The notes: a model not told the origin generated them from the letters alone. A stretch of DNA of 64,000 bases from Candidatus Woesearchaeota archaeon (GCA_964406515.1 CAYORV010000001.1:33956-97955); one strand, 5' to 3'; counted from the first letter of the stretch, positions 44,894 to 58,687 are shown. Program-made: numbers and translations.

Positions 44894-47083
44894 ATGGAAG
44901 TATCTCCTGCAGAAATAATCGATAGAATGAGCATTGTTCGATTAAAAATAGAACGAATAGGAAATCCTGAATTAAATTTAGAGATGACTGCGCTGAAACA
45001 AGCACTTGAAGAATTTAGAGAGGGAGAGATTCATATTGAAGATGGGTGGCTTGATGAACTTTATGATATAAATTCAAAAGAATGGGATTTATTAGATAAG
45101 ATGAATGAAGAGAAAAACAAAGGGAATTATGAGGAGGTTGGAAAATTATACTTGGAAACAGAGATGTTGAATAAAAAGAGAAGCAATGTTAAAAATAAAA
45201 TTGTCGAAAAAACAGAAAAGGGATTTAGGGAAATTAAAAAAGGTCATATTTCTGATATGGATAATAAGGAACTAGAAGAAGAAAATAAAAAAGTTCTTCA
45301 AGAAGAGTGTGTAAAAGTTTCTCTTGAAACAGCTAGGGGGGGAATTAAAGAATCCTGTGTGCTTCCAGAACATTTAAGTCAATATGAGGTGGATATTAGT
45401 CCGGAGACTAAAGCCGTGCTTATTACTCCAGACATGGGAAAAGTGAGTAATAAAGATGAAATCATAATTCCAAATCTTCATAATGGTCTCTTTCGGATTC
45501 ATGCATTTCTTCATGAAAAAAATATCTCCTCAGTTACATTGGATACTAGCCTTGATAATGTAAAAAGAGCGTGGGAGTTAATTGGTCGGCACAAGCCCCC
45601 TTTTATTGCATTTAGTCCTTATTATGATAGCATACGTAATGATTTAAACAACGTTGTAAAGGTTCTTGAACTTTCTCCCAATTCTATTATTGTAGCTGGA
45701 GGATTTGAAGCATCACTTAACCCTCAATGGGAAACTCTCGGGGGATTGATAGATATTCTTGTCAAAGGCGAAGGAGAATGGGCTTTAACAGAATTGATTC
45801 AAAGGCATCAAAAGTTTTTTCAGGATAATCCTTATGCAGACAAATTAAAATTTTTAGAGTATTTAAAAAAAGACTTTGAAATTCATCCAATTCCAGGAGT
45901 TTCTATTTTGAGTGCAGATGGCACAATACAAACATCTCCTGTAAAAAAGAGAATTGACCCTAATTTGTATCAGGAAATAAATCTCAATGCATTTCAAAAG
46001 TATCTATCTCTTTCACCAATCGAAAAATATTGGAAGATTAATCGGTGGTTATTTGGGGGTAAAAAGGATGCGTATTTTCGTTTTGTTTCTAGTGATCACT
46101 GCCCCTATAAGTGTGTTTTTTGCCAAAGTTCTGTTTATTATTCAAAAATTATGGGGAAAAAATTTTCTCCTGTTCGTTATATCAATCCTGAAAATATATT
46201 AAAAATAATCAAAGCTGTTTCAGACCAACTTCCATTTATTAATGGTATGTATATAGATGATGAGAATTTTATAATCAATCGTGAGCGTGCAATTGAAGCA
46301 TTAAATTTGATCATTGATGGACGGGAAACTGGAGAAATACGAAAGGACATAGTATTTCAGTGTAGAACAAGAACAGATAATATTGATTCGGAGATTTGCA
46401 GACTCTTGAAACAAGCAGGTTTTGAAACAGTATCTGTAGGATCCGAAAGTTATTCTTCTAAGGAATTGGAATATTTAAATAAAAATACTTCTCCCGAACA
46501 AAATTTGAAAGCAATTAAAATTATACTGGATAGTGGACTCAATGTAGCGGAGAATTATATTTTGTTTACTCCTGCCACAACTGCAGATACATTTTATGAT
46601 AATGCTTTGAGAATTTGTCAGAATATTGGGGAATTGGGTGTTGATGGAACTGCTACATTATTTTTAACTCCTCTTCCCGGGACTAAATTGTGGGGGGATG
46701 GAAATTATGAAATAGTGAGAGATTTTCCTTACAAACAAGAATTATTTAAAAATAAAGTGATGTTTTATAATCCAAAAACAGGATATGATTATATCGGAGA
46801 AGAAATTAAAGTTCCGGGAACAAATAGTATTCTTCCTCACCCTGAAATTATGTTGGTAAATAATCCTTTAATGCGTAAAGTTTCCTTGGAATTTCTCCAG
46901 CATCTCCCAAAAACTATTAATTATTTTAGAGAACTTGCAGGTGGAGAACATTCTCTTTCTAGAGAATTTATTACCTTGGCCAATCTCTCGGCAGCTTCAG
47001 AAATCTTATATGGATTAACAAAAGAACAACGTTGGAAGGATTTAAACAATAGAATTGAAGAGATTGTGAGAAAGAAATCCTAA
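44894..47083 (+). CDS. Cobalamin-binding radical SAM enzyme with a ~250-aa N-terminal extension
   Basis: 'SSDHCPYKCVFCQSS'. B12-binding segment 'VLELSPNSIIVAGGFEAS'. N-terminal charged / coiled-coil-like region has no known motif. Confidence 0.65.
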   Translation: MEVSPAEIIDRMSIVRLKIERIGNPELNLEMTALKQALEEFREGEIHIEDGWLDELYDINSKEWDLLDKMNEEKNKGNYEEVGKLYLETEMLNKKRSNVKNKIVEKTEKGFREIKKGHISDMDNKELEEENKKVLQEECVKVSLETARGGIKESCVLPEHLSQYEVDISPETKAVLITPDMGKVSNKDEIIIPNLHNGLFRIHAFLHEKNISSVTLDTSLDNVKRAWELIGRHKPPFIAFSPYYDSIRNDLNNVVKVLELSPNSIIVAGGFEASLNPQWETLGGLIDILVKGEGEWALTELIQRHQKFFQDNPYADKLKFLEYLKKDFEIHPIPGVSILSADGTIQTSPVKKRIDPNLYQEINLNAFQKYLSLSPIEKYWKINRWLFGGKKDAYFRFVSSDHCPYKCVFCQSSVYYSKIMGKKFSPVRYINPENILKIIKAVSDQLPFINGMYIDDENFIINRERAIEALNLIIDGRETGEIRKDIVFQCRTRTDNIDSEICRLLKQAGFETVSVGSESYSSKELEYLNKNTSPEQNLKAIKIILDSGLNVAENYILFTPATTADTFYDNALRICQNIGELGVDGTATLFLTPLPGTKLWGDGNYEIVRDFPYKQELFKNKVMFYNPKTGYDYIGEEIKVPGTNSILPHPEIMLVNNPLMRKVSLEFLQHLPKTINYFRELAGGEHSLSREFITLANLSAASEILYGLTKEQRWKDLNNRIEEIVRKKS

Positions 47084-47388
47084 ATATACCCTCTATCTCC
47101 AAGATGTTTTTTTAACTTCGCCTCTTCCCGCTCAGTATACGGATCCACTTCTTCTTCCTCGGCGTCTATTTTTTGTATTTGATTTCCTATAGCAGTTGCA
47201 AATTCTGCCTCTTCATCTTTAGTATATATTTCCTTTCTTTCATCTTCTTCATTTTCAAAAACTACTTGTTCTAAAACAAAAGTGATATATTGTTGAATAG
47301 ATTCAAAACTTGTTTCTTTTGTTTTCTTTTCTAATTTTTGTTTTAATTCCTTAGAAATTGAAAGATTTATTTTATTTGCCATCTTCAC
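47080..47388 (-). CDS. Small acidic protein with an RHH (CopG/Arc)-like N-terminus (family member 1 of 3)
   Basis: 'INLSISKELKQKLEKK...SIQQYITFVLEQ' beta-alpha-alpha pattern. Acidic tail with two 'YTxEEA' repeats, ending '...LKKHLGDRGYI'. 4-nt overlap with the upstream sulfatase-family gene. Confidence 0.4.
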   Translation of the reverse strand: MKMANKINLSISKELKQKLEKKTKETSFESIQQYITFVLEQVVFENEEDERKEIYTKDEEAEFATAIGNQIQKIDAEEEEVDPYTEREEAKLKKHLGDRGYI

Positions 47389-48815
47389 AATAATTTATTT
47401 TGCTTTATAAGAATTTGTATTCTTCTTTTTTCATTTAGTGTTTTCAGATCTCTTAAGGTTTTGTCTAATTTTGATTTCATTTCTCTTGTAATCTCTTTAT
47501 TTTTTTCAGCTAAATTTATATTTTCGTCCGGATCTTTTTCTAAATCATATAATGCGGTAATTGGTCCGTGCGTTGTATTACAGAGACAACACACAGAATT
47601 CTCTTTTTCAGGAGATTCCATATATTTATATTTTTTTGTTCTAATCGCTCTTCTTTTTATTCCTGCTGCATTTCCCTCTAAAATGATAGATTCTCTAATC
47701 TCTTCATCTTTTCCAAATAAGAGTGGAAATAAACTTTTACCATCAAATAATAAGGGGTCATATTTTATGCCGATTAAATCTAAAACTGTTGGAGCAAGAT
47801 CTTTTGATTGAATTAATGCTTCAACTTTTTTATTTTTTGGAATTTCTCCCCCAAAAATTATTAAGGGTATGCTAAAATTTGCATCGTATACTCCAGTATT
47901 ACTCAAACACAACACATGCTCACAAGGATCCATTCCATGATCTGCAAACAAGAAAACTATTGTGTCTTTTAGCAAGTTTTCATTTTTTAAGGTGTCAATT
48001 ATTTTTTCTATTAAAAAATCATCATAAAAAATGGCTGTATCATATTTTGCTATTAATCCTTCAAAAGTTTCATCAGACTTAAAACTATTCTTAGTCATCT
48101 CTATCGCTTTTTTATTATAACCTTCTGCAGAGTTTAATGCTTCAAATATCTTTTTACCTTCTTTAGTTGAAGTAAATTTATTATTCAACCAATGAGGAAA
48201 CATGTATGGGCCATGAGTCTCTTGATAATGTAAACAAAGAAAAAAATTATTTTCTTTATTTTGTTTTATTATCTCTATTGCATTGTTTGTGATTATTTCT
48301 CCATTATTATTGAATCGAATTTTGCTTTCCAATTTTTTTGGAACAATGTGGGTGTTGTGCAAAATAGATTTAAATAAATTGTACATCAATGGTTTTTTTT
48401 TGATAGATCTAATTAAACCCCATTTTTTTGATATGTCTAAATTATTTTGCTCAAAATAATAATCAAACCCCATTTTTTGCCAACCCCACAATTTTCTTGG
48501 AAAATGTGTTTTATAACCATTTTTTTGAAGTATTTCTGATAAGAAAACCCCTCCTGTCTCGAAAAAATAATCCATTTCCCTTTGTGTTGGATAATGCATA
48601 AAATCTTGTAATAAAAGATGTCTTCCACTGAGAATTGAGAAAAAAGATTTATGGGTGCCATTAGATACTGAGAAAAAATTTTTGAATAATACTCCTTGAC
48701 TTGCATAAGAATCTATATTTGGAGAAGTATTTCTTTCATATCCATAACAACCTAAGTTTTTTGGTCTTAAACCATCTATTGATAAAAAGATTATGTTTGG
48801 TTTTTTATTTTCCAT
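47385..48815 (-). CDS. Sulfatase-family (PF00884-type, AP superfamily) enzyme with Gly-Thr at the FGly position (Thr-nucleophile phosphotransferase/hydrolase type)
   Basis: 'PNIIFLSIDGLRPKNLGCYG...SVSNGTHKSFFSILSGRH' aligns with the sulfatase 'C-T-P-S-R' block but reads G-T-H-K-S. 'FADHGM'. Start taken at ATG 48815 (MENKKPN, matches the paralog); the track start at 48830 is a TTG. Confidence 0.65.
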   Translation of the reverse strand: MENKKPNIIFLSIDGLRPKNLGCYGYERNTSPNIDSYASQGVLFKNFFSVSNGTHKSFFSILSGRHLLLQDFMHYPTQREMDYFFETGGVFLSEILQKNGYKTHFPRKLWGWQKMGFDYYFEQNNLDISKKWGLIRSIKKKPLMYNLFKSILHNTHIVPKKLESKIRFNNNGEIITNNAIEIIKQNKENNFFLCLHYQETHGPYMFPHWLNNKFTSTKEGKKIFEALNSAEGYNKKAIEMTKNSFKSDETFEGLIAKYDTAIFYDDFLIEKIIDTLKNENLLKDTIVFLFADHGMDPCEHVLCLSNTGVYDANFSIPLIIFGGEIPKNKKVEALIQSKDLAPTVLDLIGIKYDPLLFDGKSLFPLLFGKDEEIRESIILEGNAAGIKRRAIRTKKYKYMESPEKENSVCCLCNTTHGPITALYDLEKDPDENINLAEKNKEITREMKSKLDKTLRDLKTLNEKRRIQILIKQNKLL

Positions 48816-48816
48816 T

Positions 48817-49104
48817 TCACATATATCCAAGATCTTCTAAACTTTCCTTCAAATCTGCTTCTTCCTCTCCGCTGTACCCCTTTCTCTTCTTATCTTCTTC
48901 ATCCCACCGAACATTTCCCTTAATGCCTGCTTCCTCTTCTTTTGTATATCCTTTTCTTTCTGTTTCCCTTCCAGAAAACATCTGTTCTAAAATAAAAAGC
49001 AAGTAATCTTGAATTGATTTAAAATTTGTTTGTTTTATCCTCTCGTCTAATTTTTGTTTTAATTCTTCGGGGATTGAAATAATTATTTCAGCTGTCATCT
49101 TCAC
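48817..49104 (-). CDS. Small acidic RHH-like protein (family member 2)
   Basis: 'IIISIPEELKQKLDERIKQTNFKSIQDYLLFILEQ'. 'GYTKEEEA...GYSGEEEADLKESLEDLGYM' repeats. Confidence 0.4.
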   Translation of the reverse strand: MKMTAEIIISIPEELKQKLDERIKQTNFKSIQDYLLFILEQMFSGRETERKGYTKEEEAGIKGNVRWDEEDKKRKGYSGEEEADLKESLEDLGYM

Positions 49105-50531
49105 AATAATTTATTTTTCTTTATAAGAATTTGTATTCTTCTTTTTTCATTTAATTTTTTCAAATCTCCTAAAGTTTTATCTAATTTTGATTTCATTTCT
49201 CTTGTAACTTTTTTATTTTTTTCAGCTAAATTTATATTTTCGTCCGGATCTTTTTCTAAATCATATAATGCGGTAATTGGTCCGTGCGTTGTATTACAGA
49301 TTCCACATACAGTGTGCTCTTTTTCAGGGGATTCCATATATTTATATTTTTTTGTTCTAATTGCTCTTCTTTTTATTCCTGCATTTTGTTCTTCCATAAT
49401 GATAGAATCTCTAATCTCTTTATCCCGACCAAATAAAAGCGGGAATAAACTTTTACCATCAAATGATAAAGAATCGTACTTTATTCCAATTAAATCAAGA
49501 ACTGTTGGAGCAAGATCTTCTAACTGGGTCAGTGCTTTAACATTTTTGTTTTGGGGAATTCCACTGCCAAAAATTATTAGGGGGATATTAAAAGAGACAT
49601 CATACACCCCCTCATTGTTGAAATAAACTTCATGTTCTCCAAGGCTTATCCCATGATCAGCGAATAAAAAAATGATAGTATCCTTTAGTAAATTCTCTTT
49701 TTTCAAAGTCTCAATTATTCTTCCTATCAATAAATCATCATAAAAAATGGCTGTATCATATTTTGTGGTTAATCCTTCGATGGTCTCATCAAATTTCCAA
49801 CAACCCCTTGAAAAATCTATATCTTTTTTATTATACCCTTCCATAGAATTTAATACCTCAAAGATTTTTTTACCCCCCGAGGGGATAGTGAATTTTTTAC
49901 TAAGAGCATAGGGAAACATATGGGGAACATGAGCATCATCATAATGTAACCATAAAAAAAAGTTGTTGTTTTTATTTTGTTTTATTATTTCTATTGCTTC
50001 ATTTGTCATTCTTTCTCCATTATTATTAAATCTTATTTTGCTTTCCAACCTTTTTGGGGTAAGATGAGTATTATGCAAAATAAATTTGAAGAAATTGTAT
50101 ATTAATGGTTTTTTTTGGAGAGATTTTATTAAATTCCATTTTTTTGATGCTTCTAAACTATCTTGTTCAAAAAAATAATCAAATCCTTTTTTTTGCCAAC
50201 CGAATAATTTTTCTAAAAAATGTGTTTTATAACCATGTTTTTGGAGTATTTCTGATAAGAGAACCCCCCCTGTATCAAAAAAAGAATTCATTTCTCTTTT
50301 AGAGGCATAATTCCCAAAATCTCTTGCTAAAATATGCCTTCCTCCGAGAATAGAGGAGAAAGATTTGTGAGTAACTGAGTAATACGAAAAAAAATTTTCG
50401 AATAATACTCCTTGGCTTGCATAAGAATCTATATTTGGGGAAGTATCTCTTTTATATCCATAACAACCAAGATTCCTTGGCCTTAAACCATCTACAGATA
50501 AAAAAATTATATTTGGTTTTTTATTTTCCAT
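49101..50531 (-). CDS. Sulfatase-family enzyme, tandem paralog of 47385..48815
   Basis: 'MENKKPNIIFLSVDGLRPRNLGCYG...' ~70% aa identity to the paralog, including long identical nucleotide runs. Confidence 0.65.
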   Translation of the reverse strand: MENKKPNIIFLSVDGLRPRNLGCYGYKRDTSPNIDSYASQGVLFENFFSYYSVTHKSFSSILGGRHILARDFGNYASKREMNSFFDTGGVLLSEILQKHGYKTHFLEKLFGWQKKGFDYFFEQDSLEASKKWNLIKSLQKKPLIYNFFKFILHNTHLTPKRLESKIRFNNNGERMTNEAIEIIKQNKNNNFFLWLHYDDAHVPHMFPYALSKKFTIPSGGKKIFEVLNSMEGYNKKDIDFSRGCWKFDETIEGLTTKYDTAIFYDDLLIGRIIETLKKENLLKDTIIFLFADHGISLGEHEVYFNNEGVYDVSFNIPLIIFGSGIPQNKNVKALTQLEDLAPTVLDLIGIKYDSLSFDGKSLFPLLFGRDKEIRDSIIMEEQNAGIKRRAIRTKKYKYMESPEKEHTVCGICNTTHGPITALYDLEKDPDENINLAEKNKKVTREMKSKLDKTLGDLKKLNEKRRIQILIKKNKLL

Positions 50532-50616
50532 TCATCTTAATATTTTAATCTATTTTTAAATTTTATGGACCTGGAATAGTAGAAATGTTTTAATACCTTA
50601 ATTTCATTTGTGAAGC

Positions 50617-50835
50617 ATGGATAAAAAAAGAGAATATGGAACAGTATCATTACCCTTGCCACTAATAACTTCTATTAAAGATAAGATTGAAGGAACAGGA
50701 ATACATTCTGTTTCTGCTTATATTTGTTTTATTCTTAGACAGATTCTTTCTTCTCCAGAAGAGAGTGATACTCCTTTAGACCGAAAAACAGAAGAAGAGA
50801 TTAAAAAGAGATTAAAAAAATTAGGCTATATCTAA
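50617..50835 (+). CDS. Small RHH-like protein (family member 3, single C-terminal repeat)
   Basis: 'VSAYICFILRQILSSPEES...KTEEEIKKRLKKLGYI' shares the helix and the C-terminal 'EEE.xK.L.xLGYI' with the other two. Confidence 0.35.
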   Translation: MDKKREYGTVSLPLPLITSIKDKIEGTGIHSVSAYICFILRQILSSPEESDTPLDRKTEEEIKKRLKKLGYI

Positions 50836-50898
50836 TAAAATTTATTACCGAGGAATACTAAATAAGATTTAAAAAGTAATTATATATAATTATATACA

Positions 50899-52317
50899 AT
50901 GGCAGAGGTTTCAAAAAAGAACGTGAGTAAAATAATGTTTCTAACTCCTAGATATACTTTGTTTAAAAATGATGTTAGAAGATGTGTGACTCCTCTTGGA
51001 TTAGCTTATTTAGGAGCATACTTGGAAAGAGAAGGTTATGAAGTAAAAATTCTTGATGTTGCTAATGAAGGGTATAATAATATTAAACCCAATTGTGAGT
51101 TTATTACTTTTGGTTTAAATGATGAAGAAATTAAAGAAAAAATCAAAGAATTTCAACCAGATATTGTTGGAGTTTCTTGTATATTTTCGACACAAGCAGA
51201 GAATGCAAAAGAGATTCTTAAGCTTGTTAAAGAAATTGATTCTGAAATTTTTACGATGATTGGGGGTTCTCATCCAACTTATGATTTATTAAATATTTTA
51301 GATAAAAATTATGTTGATTTTGTGGTGATGGGAGAAGGAGAATTGCCTGTTTCCCAATTACTGCTTGCATTAAATGAAGGAAAAGACCTATCTAAAATTG
51401 GGGGTCTTGCATACAAGTCAAACGGAAATAAAATAATAAACACCAACAAACAATATGTTGAAAACTTAGATGAATTAGCCTTTCCTGCGAGACATCTCTT
51501 AAATATGGATATGTATTTTAAGATTAATGCTCCACAAAACCCATATCCACAGGGAAAAAGGGTTGCTCAAATAATTACATCAAGGGGTTGCTCAGCGAAA
51601 TGTGTTTTTTGTACAACTACTAATTTTTGGGGGAATCGCCATAGAGGAAGAAGTGCTGAAAAAGTAATTGAAGAAATAAAGGAAATGAAGGAAAAATATA
51701 ATATAGATGAAATTCAAATCACAGATGATAATTTTACATTGAACAAAGAAAGAGCTATGCAAATTTTAGAAGGTATTAAGAATTTGAATTTATATTGGTG
51801 TGCTCCCCAAGGGATTGCTGTTTGGGCCCTAGACGAAGAATTATTGGAAAAGATGAAGGAAAGTGGTTGTTATCAATTGACTTTTGCTGTTGAAAGTGGT
51901 AATCAAAAAGTGCTGAATGAAATTGTGAAAAAGCCATTAAATCTTCAAAAAGTTAAACCTCTTGTCAAAAAAGCCAAGGAACTTGGAATTAAAGTTCATT
52001 CTTTTGCTATTTGTGGCTTACCTGGAGAAACAATAGAAAATATGCAAGAAACCTATGATTTTGTAAAAAATTGTAATTTTGATAGTGCTTCTTTTTTTGT
52101 TGCTACTCCCCTAATTGGTTCTGAATTATTGGAAACTTGTAAAAGAGAAGGTTGCTTAAGAAAAGAAATGACTTGTAAGGACCAATTGTTTAAGATTGGG
52201 AATATCTCAACTAAAGAATTTACTGCTAAACAAGTTCAGGAAATTTGTGCTAAGTTTAACAAGGAATATAATAAAAATGATACCAGGGAGAAAAAATTTG
52301 AAGATGAAAAATATTGA
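50899..52317 (+). CDS. Cobalamin-binding radical SAM enzyme (Fom3/PhpK-like position in a phosphonate operon)
   Basis: 'KIMFLTPRY...' B12-binding N-terminus. '[15 protein letters not shown]'. Overlaps the cytidylyltransferase-PEP mutase fusion gene by 14 nt. Confidence 0.7.
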
Positions 52318-53638
52318 AAATAAAAAAAGTGAAGATAAACCAAAAAAGATTTATGTGGCTATGTGTGCAGATTTGTTGCATCATGGACATATTAACATTA
52401 TAAAAGAAAGTAGGAAATTGGGAGAAGTTGTAGTTGGTTTGCTTACAGATGAGGCCATTGCGAGTTATAAAAGAGTTCCTCTTATCCCTTATGAACAAAG
52501 GAAAATAATTGTTGAGAATATAAAAGGTGTAAAAGAAGTTGTGGCTCAGGAAAATTTTGATTATGTTCCTACACTTAAAAAAGTGAGACCAGATTATGTT
52601 GTTCACGGAGATGATTGGAAAACAGGAATTCAAAGGAAGGTTCGGCAAAGAATTATAGATGTGCTTAATGAATGGGGAGGTAAAATTGTAGAAATACCTT
52701 ATACCAAAGGCATGTCCTCCACAGGACTACAAGGAAATGTAAAAGAAATAGGAATCACTCGAGAAATGAGAACGAAAAGATTAAGGAGGTTGCTTGAATT
52801 TAAACCACTGGTAAAAATTTTAGAATCCCATAATGGGTTGACAGCTATGATCGTAGAAAATACATTCATTGAAGAAAATAATGTAAAAAAAGAATTTGAT
52901 GGTGTATGGGTAAGTAGTTTAACTGACTCTGTCTCCAAAGGAAAGCCAGACACAGGAATTGTAGATTTGACTTCTAGATTGAGTACAATAAATCATATTT
53001 TAGAAGTGACTACAAAACCAATAATTCTTGATGGAGACAATGGGGGGGAAATTGAACATTTTTCATCCATGGTAAGAACATTGGAAAGATTGGGAGTTTC
53101 TGCAGTAATAATTGAAGATAAAATTGGATTCAAAAGAAATTCTTTATTTGGAACAGAAGCAAACCAATCACAAGAAGAGGTTTCAAAATTTGCAGAGAAA
53201 ATTTCTGCAGGGAAAAAAGTACAATTAGAAGATGATTTTATGATTATCTCGAGGATTGAAAGTTTAATTTTAGGAAAAGGAATTTATGATGCTCTTATTA
53301 GGGCAAAAGCATATATTGAAGCTGGAGCAGATGCCATAATGATTCACAGTAAAGAAAGAGATGGGAAAGAAATTTTAGAATTTTGTAAACAATATTCTCA
53401 AATTGAAAATAAAGTGCCCTTGGTCGTTGTGCCCTCTACATATAGCCATATTAAGGAAGAAGAATTAATCAATGCTGGAGTAAATATGGTTATCTATGCC
53501 AACCATTTATTAAGAAGTGCATATCCTGCAATGAAAAAAACAGCTGAAAAAATTTTATTGAATGAGAGAGCGTATGAGTGTGAAGAAGATTGCATGCCTA
53601 TCAAAGATCTTCTAAATTTAATTTCTGAAGGAAGATGA
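52304..53638 (+). CDS. Bifunctional cytidylyltransferase (HxGH) / phosphoenolpyruvate phosphomutase (Fom1-like architecture)
   Basis: N-term '[35 protein letters not shown]'. C-term '[15 protein letters not shown]', '[11 protein letters not shown]', '[18 protein letters not shown]', '[15 protein letters not shown]' and '[14 protein letters not shown]' match PepM/ICL-superfamily blocks. The ATG at 52304 is preferred; the track start at 52196 would lie inside the upstream gene. Confidence 0.8.
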
Positions 53639-54756: not shown

Positions 54757-55856
54757 AACAACAAGAGTATTTTGACTTTGGAAGTTTAGAGAATCTTAGA
54801 GATATTTTGGAATATGAAAAATCAAGGAATGTTTTTCTTGTTACTGGAAGAGATTCTTATGAAAAATGTGGAGCTAAAGAAAAAATAGAAACGATCTTAG
54901 GAAATTCAGAAATTGGTTTTACAAGATTTTGTGATTTTTTTTCTAATCCTAACATAAAAGATATACAAAAAGGGTGTGATTCATTTAAGAAGAAAAACTA
55001 TGATCTTATTATGGGTGTTGGTGGTGGAAGTGTTATTGATACTGCAAAAGCCATTAAATTATTCAATTGCCCAAAAGCAGAGAAAATTCCTTTGATCGCG
55101 ATACCAACGACTGCCGGAAGCGGAAGTGAAGCTACGTGGTTTGTTGTTTTTTACAAAGGAAAAGAAAAACAATCTTGGGGAAATGAAACAATTACATTGC
55201 CCAATTATTCAGTCATTGACCCAAAATTAACAATGTCTCTGTCAAGAAAGGTTGCTGCGAGTACTGGTATGGATGCATTGGCTCAAGCAGTTGAATCATA
55301 TTGGTGCATTAATTCAACAGATGAATCAAAAAGAATTGCAAGACAATCGATAAAATTAACCTTAAAAAATTTGGAAAGAGCTGTTAATGGGAAAGGTAAG
55401 AGAGCAAGAGGAAATATGGCGTTATCTTCGAATCTTGCAGGAAAGGCCATTAACCTCACAAGGACTACTGCTTGTCATTCAATAGCTTATCCCATTACTT
55501 CTTATTTTGATGTTGCCCATGGGCATGCTGTTGGTTTAACTTTAGGAGAAATGCTGACTTATAATTCTAAAGTAACTGAAGGAGATTGTAATGATGGTAG
55601 GGGATTTGAGTATGCTAGAAAAACGATTAATGAATTAGTTGAGATATTTGAAGTAGGGTGTGTTGATGGAACTTCTCGTAGAATTAAAAATTTGATGGAT
55701 TCAATTGGATTAGAGACACGATTATCTGAAATAGAAATTGGCGAACAAGGAAGGGAGATTATAATCGACAAAGGATTTAAACCAGAAAGGGTTAAAAACA
55801 ATCCAAGGATATTAACAAGGAATGGATTGAGGAAAATTTTGGAGAAGATTGCTTAA
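54753..55856 (+). CDS. Iron-containing (group III) alcohol dehydrogenase (phosphonoacetaldehyde reductase, PhpC/FomC-like)
   Basis: 'DLIMGVGGGSVIDTAKAI' Fe-ADH glycine motif plus His-rich C-terminus ('CHSIAYP...HGHAVG'). ATGA overlap with ppd. Confidence 0.75.
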   Translation: MKQQEYFDFGSLENLRDILEYEKSRNVFLVTGRDSYEKCGAKEKIETILGNSEIGFTRFCDFFSNPNIKDIQKGCDSFKKKNYDLIMGVGGGSVIDTAKAIKLFNCPKAEKIPLIAIPTTAGSGSEATWFVVFYKGKEKQSWGNETITLPNYSVIDPKLTMSLSRKVAASTGMDALAQAVESYWCINSTDESKRIARQSIKLTLKNLERAVNGKGKRARGNMALSSNLAGKAINLTRTTACHSIAYPITSYFDVAHGHAVGLTLGEMLTYNSKVTEGDCNDGRGFEYARKTINELVEIFEVGCVDGTSRRIKNLMDSIGLETRLSEIEIGEQGREIIIDKGFKPERVKNNPRILTRNGLRKILEKIA

Positions 55857-57235
55857 TGAAAAAAGTATTTGTGTTTGGAATTGATGGTGCAATGCCTGAA
55901 AAGATTTTTGGCGAGTGGTTAGATGAGTTGCCAACCATCAAAAAACTTATGGGAGAAGGATGTTATGCTAAATTGAATTCGACTATTCCTCCTTTAACTG
56001 CTGTGGCTTGGACCTCTATGAGAACAGGTAAACCACCTGCTGAACATGGTCTTTTTGAATATATCTTTAGAAAAAAGAACTCTTACACAGATATGGGAGT
56101 TATATCTGCAAATAATATCCAAGAAAAATCTATTTGGCATATTGTATCTGAACACAATAAAAAATCAATAGTTTGTCTTGTTCCAATAACTTGGCCAATT
56201 AAACCTTTCACTGGAACAATTGTATCTGGATTTCTCACTCCAGATATTGAATCTGAATATACTTTTCCACGGGAATTCAAAAAAGAAATAAAATCTCTTT
56301 TTGACGAACCATTTATTATAGATCTCTATGATCATAGAAAACTATCTAAAAAAGAACTCTTAGAAAAATGTATTAAAATTACTGAAATGCATTTTAAATT
56401 AATGAAATATTTAATTCGAAAAAAGGAATGGGATTTATTTTTTGGAATAATTGCCGCGAGTGATTGGGTAAATCATAGTTTTTTCAAATATATGGATAAA
56501 GAACATAGAAATTATGAACCAGATTCTGAATTTAAAAATACTTTAAAAAATTATTATAAATTTGTAGATAAGAATCTTGGAGAATTGATAGAACTACTTC
56601 CAAAAGATACTACTATCATTATTGTTTCTGATCATGGTATAAAAAGGATGCATAATAGATTTAACTTGAGTGATTGGCTTTTGAAAAAAGGTTATTTGGT
56701 TTTAAAAGAAAAATTTGAAACAAAACTCCCTCTCAACTTAGAAATGATTGATTGGGAAAAAACAAGGGCTTGGGCGATTGGAGCATATGAAGGGCAGATA
56801 TTTATTAATTTAAAGAATCGAGAACCTGGAGGAATTGTAGACGAAAAAGATTATGATGAATTGGTGGAAGAGATTCAAGAAGGATTGTCTCAAATAAAAG
56901 GAGATCGAGGAGAGGAATTAGATACAAAATTCTTCAAGAAGAAAAAAGATTTTGTTGGGAAAAATAACCAACACGCTCCAGATCTGATGGTTTATTTTGA
57001 TGATTTGCAATATGGATGTAATAATTCTTTTGTCCACAATGAAACAATGTGGAATATTGAGACTCTGAAGGGGAAGGATGATGCGGGACATTCGAGACAA
57101 GGAATGTTTATAATGAACAAGTCTAATCAAAAGGGGTATATTGGAGAAATTGATATTTTAGATGTTGCTCCTACAATATTAAACCTATTAAAAGTAACAA
57201 TGCCCAGAGATCTTAAAGGAAAAATCATAAAATGA
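55856..57235 (+). CDS. Nucleotide pyrophosphatase/phosphodiesterase (NPP, PF01663-type) AP-superfamily enzyme
   Basis: 'VFGIDGAMPE', 'NSTIPPLTAVAWTSMRTGKPPAEHGLF' (T-x-P...TG..P..HG NPP block), 'VSDHGI'. TAATG overlap with the Fe-ADH. Confidence 0.6.
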   Translation: MKKVFVFGIDGAMPEKIFGEWLDELPTIKKLMGEGCYAKLNSTIPPLTAVAWTSMRTGKPPAEHGLFEYIFRKKNSYTDMGVISANNIQEKSIWHIVSEHNKKSIVCLVPITWPIKPFTGTIVSGFLTPDIESEYTFPREFKKEIKSLFDEPFIIDLYDHRKLSKKELLEKCIKITEMHFKLMKYLIRKKEWDLFFGIIAASDWVNHSFFKYMDKEHRNYEPDSEFKNTLKNYYKFVDKNLGELIELLPKDTTIIIVSDHGIKRMHNRFNLSDWLLKKGYLVLKEKFETKLPLNLEMIDWEKTRAWAIGAYEGQIFINLKNREPGGIVDEKDYDELVEEIQEGLSQIKGDRGEELDTKFFKKKKDFVGKNNQHAPDLMVYFDDLQYGCNNSFVHNETMWNIETLKGKDDAGHSRQGMFIMNKSNQKGYIGEIDILDVAPTILNLLKVTMPRDLKGKIIK

Positions 57236-57310: not shown

Positions 57311-58687
57311 ATGAGAAATAAAAAGGTGTTTGTTTTAGGGATTGATGGTGCTCCTCCCGAACTAATCTTCAATGAATGGTTGGATGATTTACCCGTAATT
57401 AAAAAATTAATGCTAGAAGGAACTTATGCAAAATTAAATAGCACCATTCCTCCTGTGTCTGCGGTTGCTTGGATATCGATGTGTACTGGAAAGTTGCCTT
57501 CTGATCATGGGGTTTTTGATTATATATGTAGAAAAAATAATTCCTATGAGGACATAAGTGTAGTTTCAACTAATAATGTTCAGGAAGAATCTGTTTGGGA
57601 AATTCTTTCTAGATATAATAAAAAATCAATTTTTTGTTTAATTCCAGTAACTTGGCCAATTAAACCCTTTGATGGCATTGGGGTTAGCGGATTTCTCACT
57701 CCGAGAGTTAAAAGAGATTATGTTTATCCTTCGCACCTACAACAAGAAGTTGAATCTCTTTTTGATGAACCTTTTATAATAGACATAGAAAAACATAGAG
57801 ATTTATCAAAAGAAGATTTGCTTGAAAAAATTTATAAAATGACTGAAATGCATTTTAAATTGATGAAGCATATGATAAAAAATAAACAATGGGATTTGTT
57901 CTGGGGAGTGATTATGGGAAGCGATAGAATGAATCATAACTTTTGGAGGTTCTTTGATAAGGGGCATAGAAGATATGAAAATAATCTTGAATTTGAAACT
58001 GCATTAAAAGATTATTATAAATTCCTGGATAAAAATCTTGGAGAATTAATTCAATTACTTGATGATGATACAACAATCATTGTAGTCTCGGACCATGGAA
58101 TACAGAAAATGGATACTAGGGTGAATTTAAGTGATTGGCTTATTAAAGAAGGATACTTGGTCCTTAAAGAACCTGTTAAAGAAAAAATGAAATTTACTAT
58201 GGATATGGTTAATTGGGACGAAACAAGGGTTTTTGCAAGGGGTGCATGGGATGGACAAATTTTTCTTAATTTAAAAGGCAGAGAAGAAAAAGGAATTGTG
58301 AATGAGGACGAATATGAAAATCTTATTGAAGAGTTAGAAATGAAATTAAAACAAATAAAAGGGGATGATGAAAAAGTTTTGGATACAAAGATTTTCAAGA
58401 AAAAAGATTATAGCGGGAAATTTGATAACATTGCGCCAGACATGATTATTTATTTTGATAATTTGAATTATGGATGTAATACAACTTTAATAGGAAATCC
58501 TACTTTTTGGTCTCCTCAAACAGCAATTGGTAGTGATGATGTCACTCATTCGAAAAAAGGGATATTTATTACTAATAATTCTCAGAAAGGAAACATTGGA
58601 GAAATTGGAATTATAGACATTGCTCCAACAATCCTAAATGAATTAGAAGTGCCAATCCCCAAAGATATGAAGGGGGAGATCTTATGA
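57311..58687 (+). CDS. NPP-family AP-superfamily enzyme, tandem paralog
   Basis: 'VLGIDGAPPE...NSTIPPVSAVAWISMCTGKLPSDHGVF...VSDHGI'. ~50% identical to 55856..57235. Confidence 0.6.
   Translation: MRNKKVFVLGIDGAPPELIFNEWLDDLPVIKKLMLEGTYAKLNSTIPPVSAVAWISMCTGKLPSDHGVFDYICRKNNSYEDISVVSTNNVQEESVWEILSRYNKKSIFCLIPVTWPIKPFDGIGVSGFLTPRVKRDYVYPSHLQQEVESLFDEPFIIDIEKHRDLSKEDLLEKIYKMTEMHFKLMKHMIKNKQWDLFWGVIMGSDRMNHNFWRFFDKGHRRYENNLEFETALKDYYKFLDKNLGELIQLLDDDTTIIVVSDHGIQKMDTRVNLSDWLIKEGYLVLKEPVKEKMKFTMDMVNWDETRVFARGAWDGQIFLNLKGREEKGIVNEDEYENLIEELEMKLKQIKGDDEKVLDTKIFKKKDYSGKFDNIAPDMIIYFDNLNYGCNTTLIGNPTFWSPQTAIGSDDVTHSKKGIFITNNSQKGNIGEIGIIDIAPTILNELEVPIPKDMKGEIL

Follow-up and report, generated by a model that had tools for sequence, protein, structure and literature searches.

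A putative archaeal family of ribbon-helix-helix repressors with a conserved C-terminal tail helix in sulfation and phosphonate gene clusters

Three small acidic proteins, A, B and C, are encoded beside two sulfatase-family genes and a phosphonate operon in a 64,000-nucleotide (64-kb) stretch of DNA from a Candidatus Woesearchaeota archaeon (hereafter the window), and they raise the question of what proteins with a ribbon-helix-helix (RHH)-like N-terminus and a repeated acidic C-terminal motif do in such a setting: they could be CopG/Arc-type regulators, or they could be carriers or substrate peptides for the enzymes encoded next to them. An ORF check confirmed all three genes (Table 1), and profile-profile comparison showed that the proteins are homologous, the tail included. 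A and B are 45% identical end to end (E 1e-22), and both match the N-terminal 40 residues of C (E 1e-6 and 5e-8). Using hhalign, the A/B family aligned end to end, including the tail, with the family of C (97.7%, E 1.7e-12), and also including the tail with the core family of relatives (98.6%, E 1.3e-15). Relative to these two families A and B carry an insertion of 28-31 residues, which contains a first copy of the motif 'Y-T-K-[DE]-E-E-A'; both copies fall at the same positions of the tail HMM, in line with the internal repeat noted earlier.

Table 1. Positions in the window of the genes, protein segments and regulatory elements discussed in the text.
Feature	Coordinates	Strand	Description
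Protein A	47080-47382	-	100 aa from ATG; 102 aa if GTG at 47388; RHH-like domain, first repeat, tail (ending YTEREEAKLKKHLGDRGYI)
Tail of A	47083-47139	-	Residues 82-100; homologue alignment, AF2, hhalign
First repeat of A	47191-47226	-	YTKDEEAEFATA; predicted helix 55-64
Sulfatase-family gene 1 (SULF1)	47385-48830	-	75% identical to gene 2
Protein B	48817-49098	-	93 aa from ATG; 95 aa if GTG at 49104; RHH-like domain, first partial tail repeat, tail (ending EEEADLKESLEDLGYM)
Tail of B	48820-48882	-	Residues 73-93; tail-HMM positions 3-22; hhalign to core-family tail
First repeat of B	48919-48954	-	KGYTKEEEAGIK; tail-HMM positions 3-14, as the start of the true tail
Sulfatase-family gene 2 (SULF2)	49101-50531	-	Alkaline-phosphatase superfamily; Pfam Sulfatase 2.3e-46
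Protein C	50617-50835	+	72 aa; putative repressor; ribbon-helix-helix domain, short acidic linker, tail helix (ending TEEEIKKRLKKLGYI)
Tail of C	50782-50832	+	Residues 56-72, capped amphipathic helix; AF2 helix 56-69
TATA-like box	50868-50876	+	TTTAAAAAG; directly 5' of operator; putative promoter element
Putative operator	50877-50892	.	TAATTATATATAATTA; two palindromic hexamers, 10 bp apart
B12-binding radical-SAM gene (B12-rSAM)	50899-52317	+	Pfam B12-binding + Radical_SAM; presumed target of C

Clustering at 50% identity divides the family to which these proteins belong into 909 clusters, and clustering at 90% identity into at least 2,547; the family extends over Thermococcus, Methanocaldococcus, Aciduliprofundum, Thermoplasmata, Altiarchaeales, Halomarina and DPANN archaea. 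All 127 C-type homologues are from DPANN archaea, and only eight homologues of A were found. The sole database label for the family is "CopG family regulator", and no model in Pfam or NCBIfam, no solved structure and no paper deals with it. The original prediction had recognised no known-family motif, and in agreement with this no Pfam or NCBIfam model matched A, B or C; matches to RHH models were all below threshold, Pfam RHH_1 giving E 0.24 for B, none for A or C, and E 0.01-0.08 for distant relatives (all below the curated cutoffs), while the best PDB profile match was the RHH domain of NikR (E 0.1, sub-threshold). We consider it likely that A, B and C are three paralogues within a pan-archaeal family of DNA-binding regulators, a judgement that applies jointly to the explanation as a whole: RHH repressors with an acidic flexible linker and a docking tail, among which C would repress the phosphonate operon.

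The assignment of the N-terminal domain draws on predicted structure and on residue conservation. AF2 placed a strand-helix-helix of ~45 residues, the arrangement of an RHH domain, at the N-terminus of A and C, with a pLDDT of 75-82 there and moderate confidence over the whole monomers (pLDDT 65-68). C was modelled as extended at 1-13 with helices at 14-24, 32-45 and 56-69, and A as extended at 1-10 with helices at 11-23, 29-49, 55-64 and 84-96 and a disordered stretch at 65-79; a fold search with these monomer models returned no match. In the C family the turn residues G26, T27, G28, S31, V32 and S33 are invariant or nearly so, the core family has GTGFTSVS at the equivalent turn, and both families show the Gly-x-Ser/Thr signature at the start of helix B and the alternating polar/hydrophobic strand typical of RHH proteins, the turn being degenerate in A and B (ETSFES and QTNFKS). 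Furthermore, the predicted DNA-facing strand residues Y-x-T-x-S are invariant in the C and core families (Y7, T9 and S11 among C-type proteins), whereas they vary in A/B. Together with the operator evidence given below, these observations lend good support to a DNA-binding RHH domain in C and across the family.

The genomic context of the core family suggests what such a domain would bind. Core-family genes are the first genes of sulfate-activation and sulfation operons: the gene directly downstream, at a median gap of 20 nt, encodes ATP sulfurylase at 41 of the 66 loci and a sulfotransferase at five; among the other neighbours, those scanned proved to be CysD or CysN. Core members have arrays of 2-7 TAATTA hexamers with a 10-bp phase in the interval from TATA box to start codon. 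A match to TAATTA-N4-TAATTA (at most one mismatch) was present at -130 to -10 in 48/66 core loci, at a density of 12.75/kb compared to 0.04/kb elsewhere in those loci, an enrichment of about 320-fold; two or more hexamers phased at 10 bp occurred in 50/65 core loci, with peaks at 10 and 20 in the spacing histogram, and the arrays were absent from about a quarter of core loci. Comparison across loci indicates that such arrays adjoin family genes across archaeal phyla, a co-occurrence from which the hexamers are read as putative operator half-sites. In the examined loci the family genes are always part of clusters for the biosynthesis of glycans or phosphonates or for sulfation. A CopG gene adjoining sat in Palaeococcus pacificus is induced together with it (PMC6981617).

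The same element recurs beside C. As predicted, C adjoins the B12-rSAM gene that heads the phosphonate operon, 63 nt upstream of it, and the genes for PEP mutase, phosphonopyruvate decarboxylase and Fe-ADH follow in the operon. TAATTA-N4-TAATTA has a single exact copy in the window (0.09 expected by chance), and this copy, which matches the arrays upstream of core-family genes, has a TATA-like box on its 5' side and the operon's ATG on its 3' side; the position of the box points to a leaderless transcript from about 50899. The layout TTTAAAnA, operator, ATG is kept in about ten DPANN loci, the operator holding the same position 3' of C-type genes in L006, L011, L012, L015-L018, L021 and L022. 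The promoter of C itself has no operator in the window, L006 and L022. Because C keeps Y-x-T-x-S and the unique exact operator lies at the promoter of the operon, C is probably a repressor of the B12-rSAM/phosphonate operon. We propose that C dimers would bind the two hexamers, which follow the TATA-like box and precede the leaderless start of the B12-rSAM/PEP-mutase operon, and that binding there would block the recruitment of RNA-polymerase; C would therefore repress phosphonate synthesis for cell-surface decoration.

The position of the C gene is already accounted for by the operator evidence, which speaks against the proposal that A, B and C are substrates or carriers whose Tyr, Thr or Ser residues are covalently modified by adjacent radical-SAM or phosphotransferase-like enzymes. 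A/B proteins always have Y53, Y82 and Y99, the tail Tyr is invariant throughout the family, the acidic surroundings look like Tyr-sulfation sites, and alkaline-phosphatase-superfamily transferases (PptA, EptC) modify protein Ser/Thr, all of which would suit such a role. However, the pre-helix residue is Phe or Leu, not Tyr, in most relatives, and the Ser/Thr suits a helix N-cap; conservation is highest at the C-terminus, not in a leader followed by a variable core beside a dedicated maturase; the radical-SAM neighbour is closer to P-methyltransferases (353 bits against NCBIfam Sden_1168, below the cutoff of 575) than to the RiPP maturase ApyD (151 bits); and no SPASM gene was found in the window. 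We regard modification of a substrate peptide as very improbable, and the earlier suggestion of a RiPP-like or carrier peptide gained no positive support. Radical-SAM/SPASM genes are found two genes away from the small gene in L001 and L002.

Returning to the proposed repressor family, its best-conserved segment is the tail, with the consensus [FY][ST]xE[DE]EExVKxRLRxLGY[LIM], in which a 14-residue helix has a Ser/Thr N-cap and a Gly C-cap; conservation of the tail in orthologues, one of the checks set by the original prediction, was thus found. Its 'LGY' ending held less generally, as '[RK]GY' takes its place in most A-type proteins. Across nine A/B homologues the residues Y53, E57, E58, Y82, E87, L90, K91, L94, G98 and Y99 do not vary. 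The tail HMM scored 37 bits on C, compared to a maximum of 12 for reversed-sequence controls, and just 4-7 bits on the window's own A and B tails after composition correction, so the family membership of A and B rests on the full-length profile alignment. The tail also occurs at the end of a PF01663 enzyme and of an ABC ATPase, and in seven mini-ORFs of 32-45 aa with no DNA-binding domain (16-42 bits, against the same control maximum), four of which either overlap the start codon of a sulfatase-family gene or are 1 nt away from it. Since it is found without a DNA-binding domain in enzyme-coupled mini-proteins, the tail looks like an autonomous protein-docking helix, although this putative role is less certain than that of the N-terminal domain. 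At 14 residues the helix is short for a coiled-coil oligomerisation domain.

A and B had been described as each coupled to a sulfatase-family gene, and this was borne out: the spacer is 2 nt with the ATG starts and becomes a 4-nt overlap with the GTG starts. The operon order is SULF2-B-SULF1-A, with SULF2 as the first gene, the ATG of B lying 2 nt past the stop of SULF2 and the true start of SULF1 being likely the ATG at 48815, 1 nt past the stop of B. Both enzymes have the PF00884 fold family, and neither shows the C/S-x-P-x-R signature of type I sulfatases. T-H-K-S-F of SULF2 aligns with S-T-P-S-R and S-G-P-S-R of solved sulfatases, Thr replacing the formylglycine Cys/Ser; rather than true sulfatases, these Thr-type enzymes are probably transferases or esterases of phospho or phosphono groups. 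A search for an operator of A or B found none, and with their variable DNA-facing residues the CopG/Arc-type reading applies less surely to them than to C and the family overall, where fold and operator arrays support it. The suggested link to neighbouring enzymes holds in so far as the genes of A, B and the mini-proteins sit in tight coupling with those of the sulfatase family; the SPASM part of it was not seen in the window.

Tight gene pairs, likely autoregulation and an RHH domain followed by a flexible C-terminal tail also recall the make-up of CopG-, ParD- and RelB-type antitoxins, and A and B might by this token be antitoxins of a type II toxin-antitoxin or defence module with the sulfatase-family enzymes as toxins. 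PADLOC, however, matched none of the five proteins, Pfam and NCBIfam showed no toxin family, the neighbours being Sulfatase/Phosphodiest-family enzymes and biosynthetic genes, and the family's genes sit in biosynthesis clusters with a putative operator that would control biosynthetic operons; we find this reading scarcely credible. A more serious alternative, though still a doubtful one, is that A, B and the mini-proteins serve the Thr-type enzymes as stoichiometric small subunits, inhibitors or chaperones, in which case an enzyme-repressor complex could relay metabolic state back to transcription. It would fit the translational coupling of A and B to the enzyme genes, the joint duplication of the pair (enzymes 75% identical, A/B 45%), the mini-ORFs at four sulfatase-family starts elsewhere in a gene order unlike that of the window, and the shortness of the capped helices, which is typical of docking peptides. 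A tail ORF moreover lies within 120 nt of 18 of the 20 sulfatase-type genes in DPANN loci, an adjacency count that is biased because these loci were the ones fetched around C-type genes. On the other hand, L006 has one tail protein for two enzyme genes, and many core loci, L064, L077 and L080 among them, have a sulfotransferase but lack any alkaline-phosphatase-superfamily gene within 16 kb, and yet their tail is near-invariant; that enzyme family therefore cannot be the partner in general.

Within the favoured explanation, of RHH repressors with a docking tail, A and B would be diverged copies co-translated with two Thr-type alkaline-phosphatase-superfamily enzymes, and the tail helix may either join adjacent dimers on the DNA, in the manner of Mnt's C-terminal helix, or dock on a partner protein. 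A, B, the mini-proteins and the tail-tagged enzymes could share this helix, which would tie enzyme expression to repressor activity. A bolder and unlikely extension is that the tail is a portable tag wiring enzymes to transcription: mini-proteins, A, B, the PF01663 enzyme and the ABC ATPase would compete for the dock of the repressor tail as anti-repressors, and the expression or state of group-transfer enzymes would thereby set the output of sulfate- or phosphonate-donor operons. Alternatively, the pathway might itself sulfate or phosphonylate the invariant tail Tyr, which would then serve as a feedback signal. If true, either would be an undescribed regulatory logic common to archaeal phyla.

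Several characterised systems offer points of comparison. NikR, the closest solved structure, has an ACT-like metal-binding C-terminal domain of ~90 residues, whereas A, B and C, at 72-100 aa, have just a linker and one helix. CdrS of Halobacteria, which reportedly regulates ftsZ2, and aCcr1 of Sulfolobales are likewise short RHH transcription factors of archaea that recognise a defined promoter motif, but neither is known to be tied to operons for sulfation or phosphonates. The motif bound by aCcr1, a regulator of cell-cycle genes whose C-terminus is unstructured, is AGTATTA (PMC9976892). The antitoxins ParD, RelB, CcdA and FitA and the tails of TnrA and GlnR, the last two binding glutamine synthetase, may be likened to the family in that a DNA-binding domain carries a short C-terminal stretch which folds onto an enzyme encoded close by, and such systems might serve as a model for how A, B and the mini-proteins relate to the sulfatase-family enzymes; unlike RHH antitoxins, the archaeal proteins have a tail far better conserved than antitoxin tails usually are, and no toxin or defence match. 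MetJ, omega and CopG place several RHH dimers cooperatively on short in-phase repeats along one DNA face, as the archaeal arrays may do by analogy, but the family belongs to archaea, which have TATA/TFB promoters, it has no known co-repressor, and its repeat unit is the palindrome TAATTA with a 10-bp period, while MetJ uses 8-bp boxes and omega 7-bp heptads. Mnt of phage P22, grouped with Arc as an RHH repressor binding as a dimer of dimers, showed no detectable sequence similarity to the family in PDB profile searches, yet it resembles it in its ~80 aa, in placing an RHH domain ahead of a C-terminal helix, and in two half-sites about one helical turn apart, positioned to occlude the promoter. 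Unlike in Mnt, the archaeal tail helix has only ~14 residues, sits on an acidic linker and also occurs stand-alone and on enzymes, and the putative archaeal operators reach seven phased hexamers.

Gene calls for the three small genes A, B and C were confirmed as ORFs, and pairwise and profile alignments agreed that their products, picked out in the original prediction for an RHH (ribbon-helix-helix)-like N-terminus and a repeated acidic tail, form a real family. A and B shared 45% identity (E 1e-22) and matched the first ~40 residues of C (E 1e-6 and 5e-8). In profile-profile comparisons, the A/B family scored 97.7% (E 1.7e-12) against the C family and 98.6% (E 1.3e-15) against the core family, a highly conserved subfamily that heads sulfate-activation operons. 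These alignments ran end to end, tail included, and A/B were set apart by an insertion of 28-31 residues that contains the first 'Y-T-K-[DE]-E-E-A' copy. The first repeat copy and the start of the true tail fell on identical positions of the tail HMM; both copies were kept in nine A/B homologues, across which Y53, E57, E58, Y82, E87, L90, K91, L94, G98 and Y99 were invariant. The predicted gene arrangement was also found: SULF2-B-SULF1-A is a row of four minus-strand genes with spacers of 1-2 nt or overlaps of 4 nt, coupling each two-repeat member to a sulfatase-family gene, and the single-repeat member C lies just upstream of the B12-binding radical-SAM gene heading the phosphonate operon, with a gap of 63 nt. 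As had been anticipated, scans of A, B and C against Pfam, NCBIfam and PADLOC gave no significant family match.

Coordinates of the features discussed, in the window and in other archaeal loci compared (L001 etc.)
Feature	Locus	Position	Strand	Remark
A	window	47080-47382 from one start, 47388 from the other	-	ORF confirmed
B	window	48817-49098 from one start, 49104 from the other	-	ORF confirmed
C	window	50617-50835	+	ORF confirmed
SULF1	window	47385-48830	-	
SULF2	window	49101-50531	-	
729-aa B12-radical-SAM gene	window	44894-47083	+	
Candidate operator TAATTATATATAATTA	window	50877-50892		sole perfect match; 0.09 expected by chance
B12-binding radical-SAM gene	window	50899-52317	+	
Cytidylyltransferase-PEP mutase fusion	window	52196-53638	+	listed TTG start
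PF01663 gene	window	55856-57235		
PF01663 gene	window	57311-58687		
121-123-aa ORF	L001	9862-10233		
121-123-aa ORF	L006	6388-6753		
121-123-aa ORF	L020	423-791		
PEP-mutase/enzyme intergenic region	L001	7944-8041		
Stand-alone CysD/PAPS-reductase-family gene	L009	2460-3221		behind operator
Stand-alone CysD/PAPS-reductase-family gene	L015	10251-11039		behind operator
Stand-alone CysD/PAPS-reductase-family gene	L019	10209-11024		behind operator
Stand-alone CysD/PAPS-reductase-family gene	L021	10253-11053		behind operator
Mini-ORF	L004	4504-4632		overlapping or 1 nt from sulfatase-type start; called gene
Mini-ORF	L008	9559-9696	-	overlapping or 1 nt from sulfatase-type start
Mini-ORF	L011	6887-7060		overlapping or 1 nt from sulfatase-type start
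Mini-ORF	L012	8643-8762		overlapping or 1 nt from sulfatase-type start
Mini-ORF	L010	9821-9937		just upstream of C-type gene
Mini-ORF	L013	9853-9951		just upstream of C-type gene
Mini-ORF	L016	9814-9942		just upstream of C-type gene
Example core operon	L025	6001-11037		among core-family loci L023-L105

A, B and C are members of a very large archaeal regulator family that has so far been annotated only generically. C had 127 close relatives, every one from DPANN archaea (Woese-, Pace- and Nanoarchaeota MAGs), and some carry the label 'CopG family transcriptional regulator'. An exhaustive profile search returned 909 clusters at 50% identity; among the best 149 of these, ~120 are 56-214 aa long (mostly 60-100) and terminate in ..RL[RK]xLGY[LIM] plus 0-3 residues, while the rest are mostly truncated- or frameshifted-looking. 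At least 2,547 clusters were reached with a profile built from distant members; they represent Aciduliprofundum, Thermococcus, Methanocaldococcus, Thermoplasmata, Altiarchaeales and Hydrothermarchaeota, and family members also occur in Halomarina. The core subfamily showed 73-99% identity across phyla. Conservation of the tail in relatives, a check named at the outset, was evident in a diverse alignment, where the only invariant columns were the L, L, G and Y of the tail; one tail Glu and, in the turn between the helices, F and S came close to invariance.

In the AF2 monomer models, two helices follow an extended N-terminus, and a linker of low confidence joins them to a separate C-terminal helix, as expected of an RHH monomer; in A, a further helix covers the first repeat. 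The closest solved structure by profile search was the NikR RHH domain, at a sub-threshold E of 0.1. A 'LNDLGY' match in the RNA polymerase alpha C-terminal domain, from the PDB profile search, was also sub-threshold and judged to be chance. No family member has a solved structure, and no publication on these proteins emerged from literature searches. That they belong to the RHH superfamily is supported by the predicted fold, the turn motif and the operator logic described below; no model match was significant. Other relatives bear extra RHH domains or unrelated domains. Among the multi-domain relatives (P0131, P0144, P0155, P0185, P0192 and P0179), some carry an extra tail-less RHH domain and a ~100-aa unknown middle domain ahead of the RHH-tail unit, one consists of three RHH units, and P0179 pairs a single RHH domain with two complete tails.

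We surveyed the context of 80 metagenome core-family loci together with the Aciduliprofundum and Methanocaldococcus genomes. The small RHH gene came first in a conserved operon; the further genes encoded ATP sulfurylase (or CysD/CysN) and a DHH phosphatase, either a PF01663 enzyme or a sulfotransferase, and also APS kinase and a sulfate/sulfite transporter. Of 66 loci, 41 had ATP sulfurylase directly 3' of the small gene and 5 had a sulfotransferase there; the other neighbours, where Pfam-scanned, proved to be CysD or CysN. The median gap to the downstream gene was 20 nt. From one core locus to another, the corresponding slot tends to be filled by either the PF01663 enzyme or the sulfotransferase, suggesting a possible role of the PF01663 enzyme in sulfo-group transfer. 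The two PF01663 genes of the window are 37-39% identical to the PF01663 enzyme of the Methanocaldococcus operon. For Palaeococcus pacificus, a joint rise of sat (PAP_09885) and the adjoining CopG gene PAP_09880 has been reported (PMC6981617); we infer from gene position only that PAP_09880 is a family member.

Upstream of the core genes we found arrays of the palindromic hexamer TAATTA, 4 bp apart (unit TAATTA-wATa), located downstream of a TATA box and ahead of the ribosome-binding site or ATG. The candidate operator TAATTA-N4-TAATTA was counted, allowing at most one mismatch, in the -130..-10 region and in the rest of the same loci. It was present in that region in 48 of 66 core loci, at a density of 12.75 per kb compared to 0.04 per kb elsewhere. 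Furthermore, 50 of 65 core loci had 2-7 hexamers in 10-bp phase, and the histogram of hexamer spacing peaked at 10 and 20 bp. The strand residues predicted to face DNA were invariant: the core family has [YF]-x-T-x-S and the C family Y-x-T-x-S, in keeping with a common operator. Consistently ordered as TTTAAAnA, 2-3 hexamers and ATG, the element occurred downstream of the C-type gene (the DPANN relative of C) in L006, L011, L012, L015-L018, L021 and L022; in L004, L005, L007, L010, L013, L019 and L020 it stood in front of the C-type gene.

A core-like subgroup (MGKEFTTVSIPTSLYKK..; L095, L097-L100 and L105) has no TAATTA arrays upstream of the small gene and still has unchanged DNA-facing residues; L095 and L098 carry a GC-rich near-palindrome before the start codon instead (GCGCATTTGCGC and GCGCATTTGCGT). 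A stand-alone CysD/PAPS-reductase-family gene lies directly 3' of the C-type gene in several DPANN loci, with the operator in front of it. These proteins terminate in ..LRALGY[TM], and no CysN was seen in the four loci tabulated. In L001, the only locus where 20 kb included an A-type gene but no C-type gene, the region between the PEP-mutase and enzyme genes offers no more than a degenerate, operator-like sequence (CTGTTATATATAATTT).

The 64-kb window (69% A+T) contains exactly one perfect TAATTA-N4-TAATTA. Directly preceded by TTTAAAAAG, it stops 6 nt short of the ATG of the B12-binding radical-SAM gene, which is followed in the operon by PEP mutase, phosphonopyruvate decarboxylase and Fe-alcohol dehydrogenase. 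The TATA-to-ATG distance implies leaderless transcripts, which would place the operator at about -22 to -6, the position of archaeal repressors that block polymerase recruitment. We conclude that C is most likely a repressor of the window's phosphonate operon. An acidic activation domain was set aside as the main idea, as an operator between TATA and start site occupies a repressor position. The promoter of the C-type gene itself carried no operator in the window, L006 or L022, so autoregulation is not indicated here. Across DPANN loci, sulfatase-type (PF00884) or PF01663 genes adjoin the C-type gene, and phosphonate genes or a CysD-like gene often follow it; no sulfate-activation genes were found in the window, whose module is the phosphonate version.

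The B12-binding radical-SAM protein best matched the Sden_1168 P-methyltransferase family (353 bits, below the cutoff of 575), a hint that the phosphonate product is P- or C-methylated. Downstream of C in the window, no MpnS/HEPD-like cupin gene was found; L004, unlike the window, has a 456-aa cupin-like gene downstream of its C-type gene. As listed, the cytidylyltransferase-PEP mutase fusion begins ~120 nt before the end of the radical-SAM gene, and the true start is probably an internal ATG because homologues align from ~52316.

In A/B, the DNA-facing strand positions vary among close homologues (K/E/D, N/I/T/R, S) and the turn between the helices is degenerate. In a search for an A/B-specific operator, six enzyme-A/B operon promoters yielded no repeat or palindrome, only a shared BRE/TATA-like block. 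The original prediction of CopG/Arc-type regulators is supported for C, with its candidate operator and DNA-facing residues; A and B, for which no operator was found, are at most putative DNA binders. The constant trait of A/B is instead coupling to an enzyme gene, seen twice in the window and in L001, L006, L007 and L022. SULF1 and SULF2 (75% identity) have no C/S-x-P-x-R formylglycine motif, and their T-H-K-S-F aligns to the C/S-x-P-S-R formylglycine motif of solved sulfatases. On this alignment they are alkaline-phosphatase-superfamily enzymes with Thr at the nucleophile position rather than classical sulfatases, and probably act as phospho-, phosphono- or sulfo-group transferases or esterases. 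By eye, neither has an obvious N-terminal signal sequence. The 729-aa B12-radical-SAM gene converges on gene A; its first ~120 residues form a separate ORF in related loci (48-68% identity), a domain fusion or fission adjoining the A/B-type gene.

By its consensus, [FY]-[ST]-x-E-[DE]-E-E-x-V-K-x-R-L-R-x-L-G-Y-[LI], the tail can be read as a helix that stands on its own, and AF2 placed a helix over it. We interpret it as having a Ser/Thr N-cap, a Glu three residues on and a Gly C-cap, with an acidic N-terminal end, a basic C-terminal end and a hydrophobic stripe (I/V, L, L, Y). Such a capped helix would explain the 'Y-T/S-x-EEE' motif, whose aromatic residue is Phe in most relatives and sometimes Leu, without modification. 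A 22-position tail HMM was scored against all stop-to-stop ORFs of the fetched loci (best reversed-sequence control, 12 bits). It revealed seven tail-only mini-ORFs without an RHH domain (32-45 aa, 16-42 bits; for example ..SKEDEEIVKERLKKLGYL), none of them in the window, as well as tails at the end of a PF01663 enzyme (L019, 28 bits) and of an ABC ATPase (L012, 15 bits). As the tail is found outside RHH proteins, we infer that it is an autonomous module for protein-protein contact. The C-termini of CysD and APS kinase scored mostly below the reversed-sequence control and were treated as convergent; E. coli CysD has a similar ending. Weak Pfam matches of the tail to PG_binding, POTRA and UFL1_C were read as convergent 'helix-L-G-Y' capping motifs, and an HbYX proteasome-docking motif was ruled out, as 0 to 3 residues follow the Tyr.

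One possibility is that the tail docks on an adjacent member of the family and might, for instance, bridge dimers along the 10-bp arrays like the Mnt C-terminal helix; A, B, the mini-proteins and the tagged enzymes would then modulate repression. Alternatively, the tail may dock on an enzyme, which fits its tight coupling to 18 of 20 sulfatase-type genes in the DPANN loci, a biased sample. However, enzyme docking cannot hold family-wide: the long core loci L064, L077 and L080 have no alkaline-phosphatase-superfamily gene and yet their tails are almost invariant. The tail, also found as stand-alone micro-proteins, may prove to be a new kind of regulator-enzyme coupling.

To our knowledge, the control of transcription for archaeal cell-surface decoration (sulfation, phosphonylation) is essentially unknown. 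A generically annotated pan-archaeal family of at least 2,500 clusters is now tied to TAATTA in 10-bp phase as its candidate operator. Its candidate regulon consists of sat/cysDN-cysC-sulfotransferase operons; in DPANN archaea it comprises operons for phosphonate and for alkaline-phosphatase-superfamily enzymes. This prediction is open to test in cultivable Thermococcales and Methanococcales. It would also help to tell when uncultured DPANN archaea produce phosphonates, compounds that enter the marine phosphorus and methane cycles.

Among known systems, A, B and C differ from NikR in lacking its metal domain, and from RHH antitoxins in having no toxin and no PADLOC match. They also differ from RiPP precursors, and the carrier or RiPP-like role once proposed for them is not supported: the C-terminus is the conserved part, the neighbouring radical-SAM protein is P-methyltransferase-like, and no SPASM gene was found in the window. 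aCcr1 of the Sulfolobales belongs to another RHH clade, with the motif AGTATTA and cell-cycle targets (PMC9976892). The closest likenesses are to Arc and Mnt, small RHH repressors that bind two half-sites as a dimer of dimers, and to MetJ and omega in their phased arrays.
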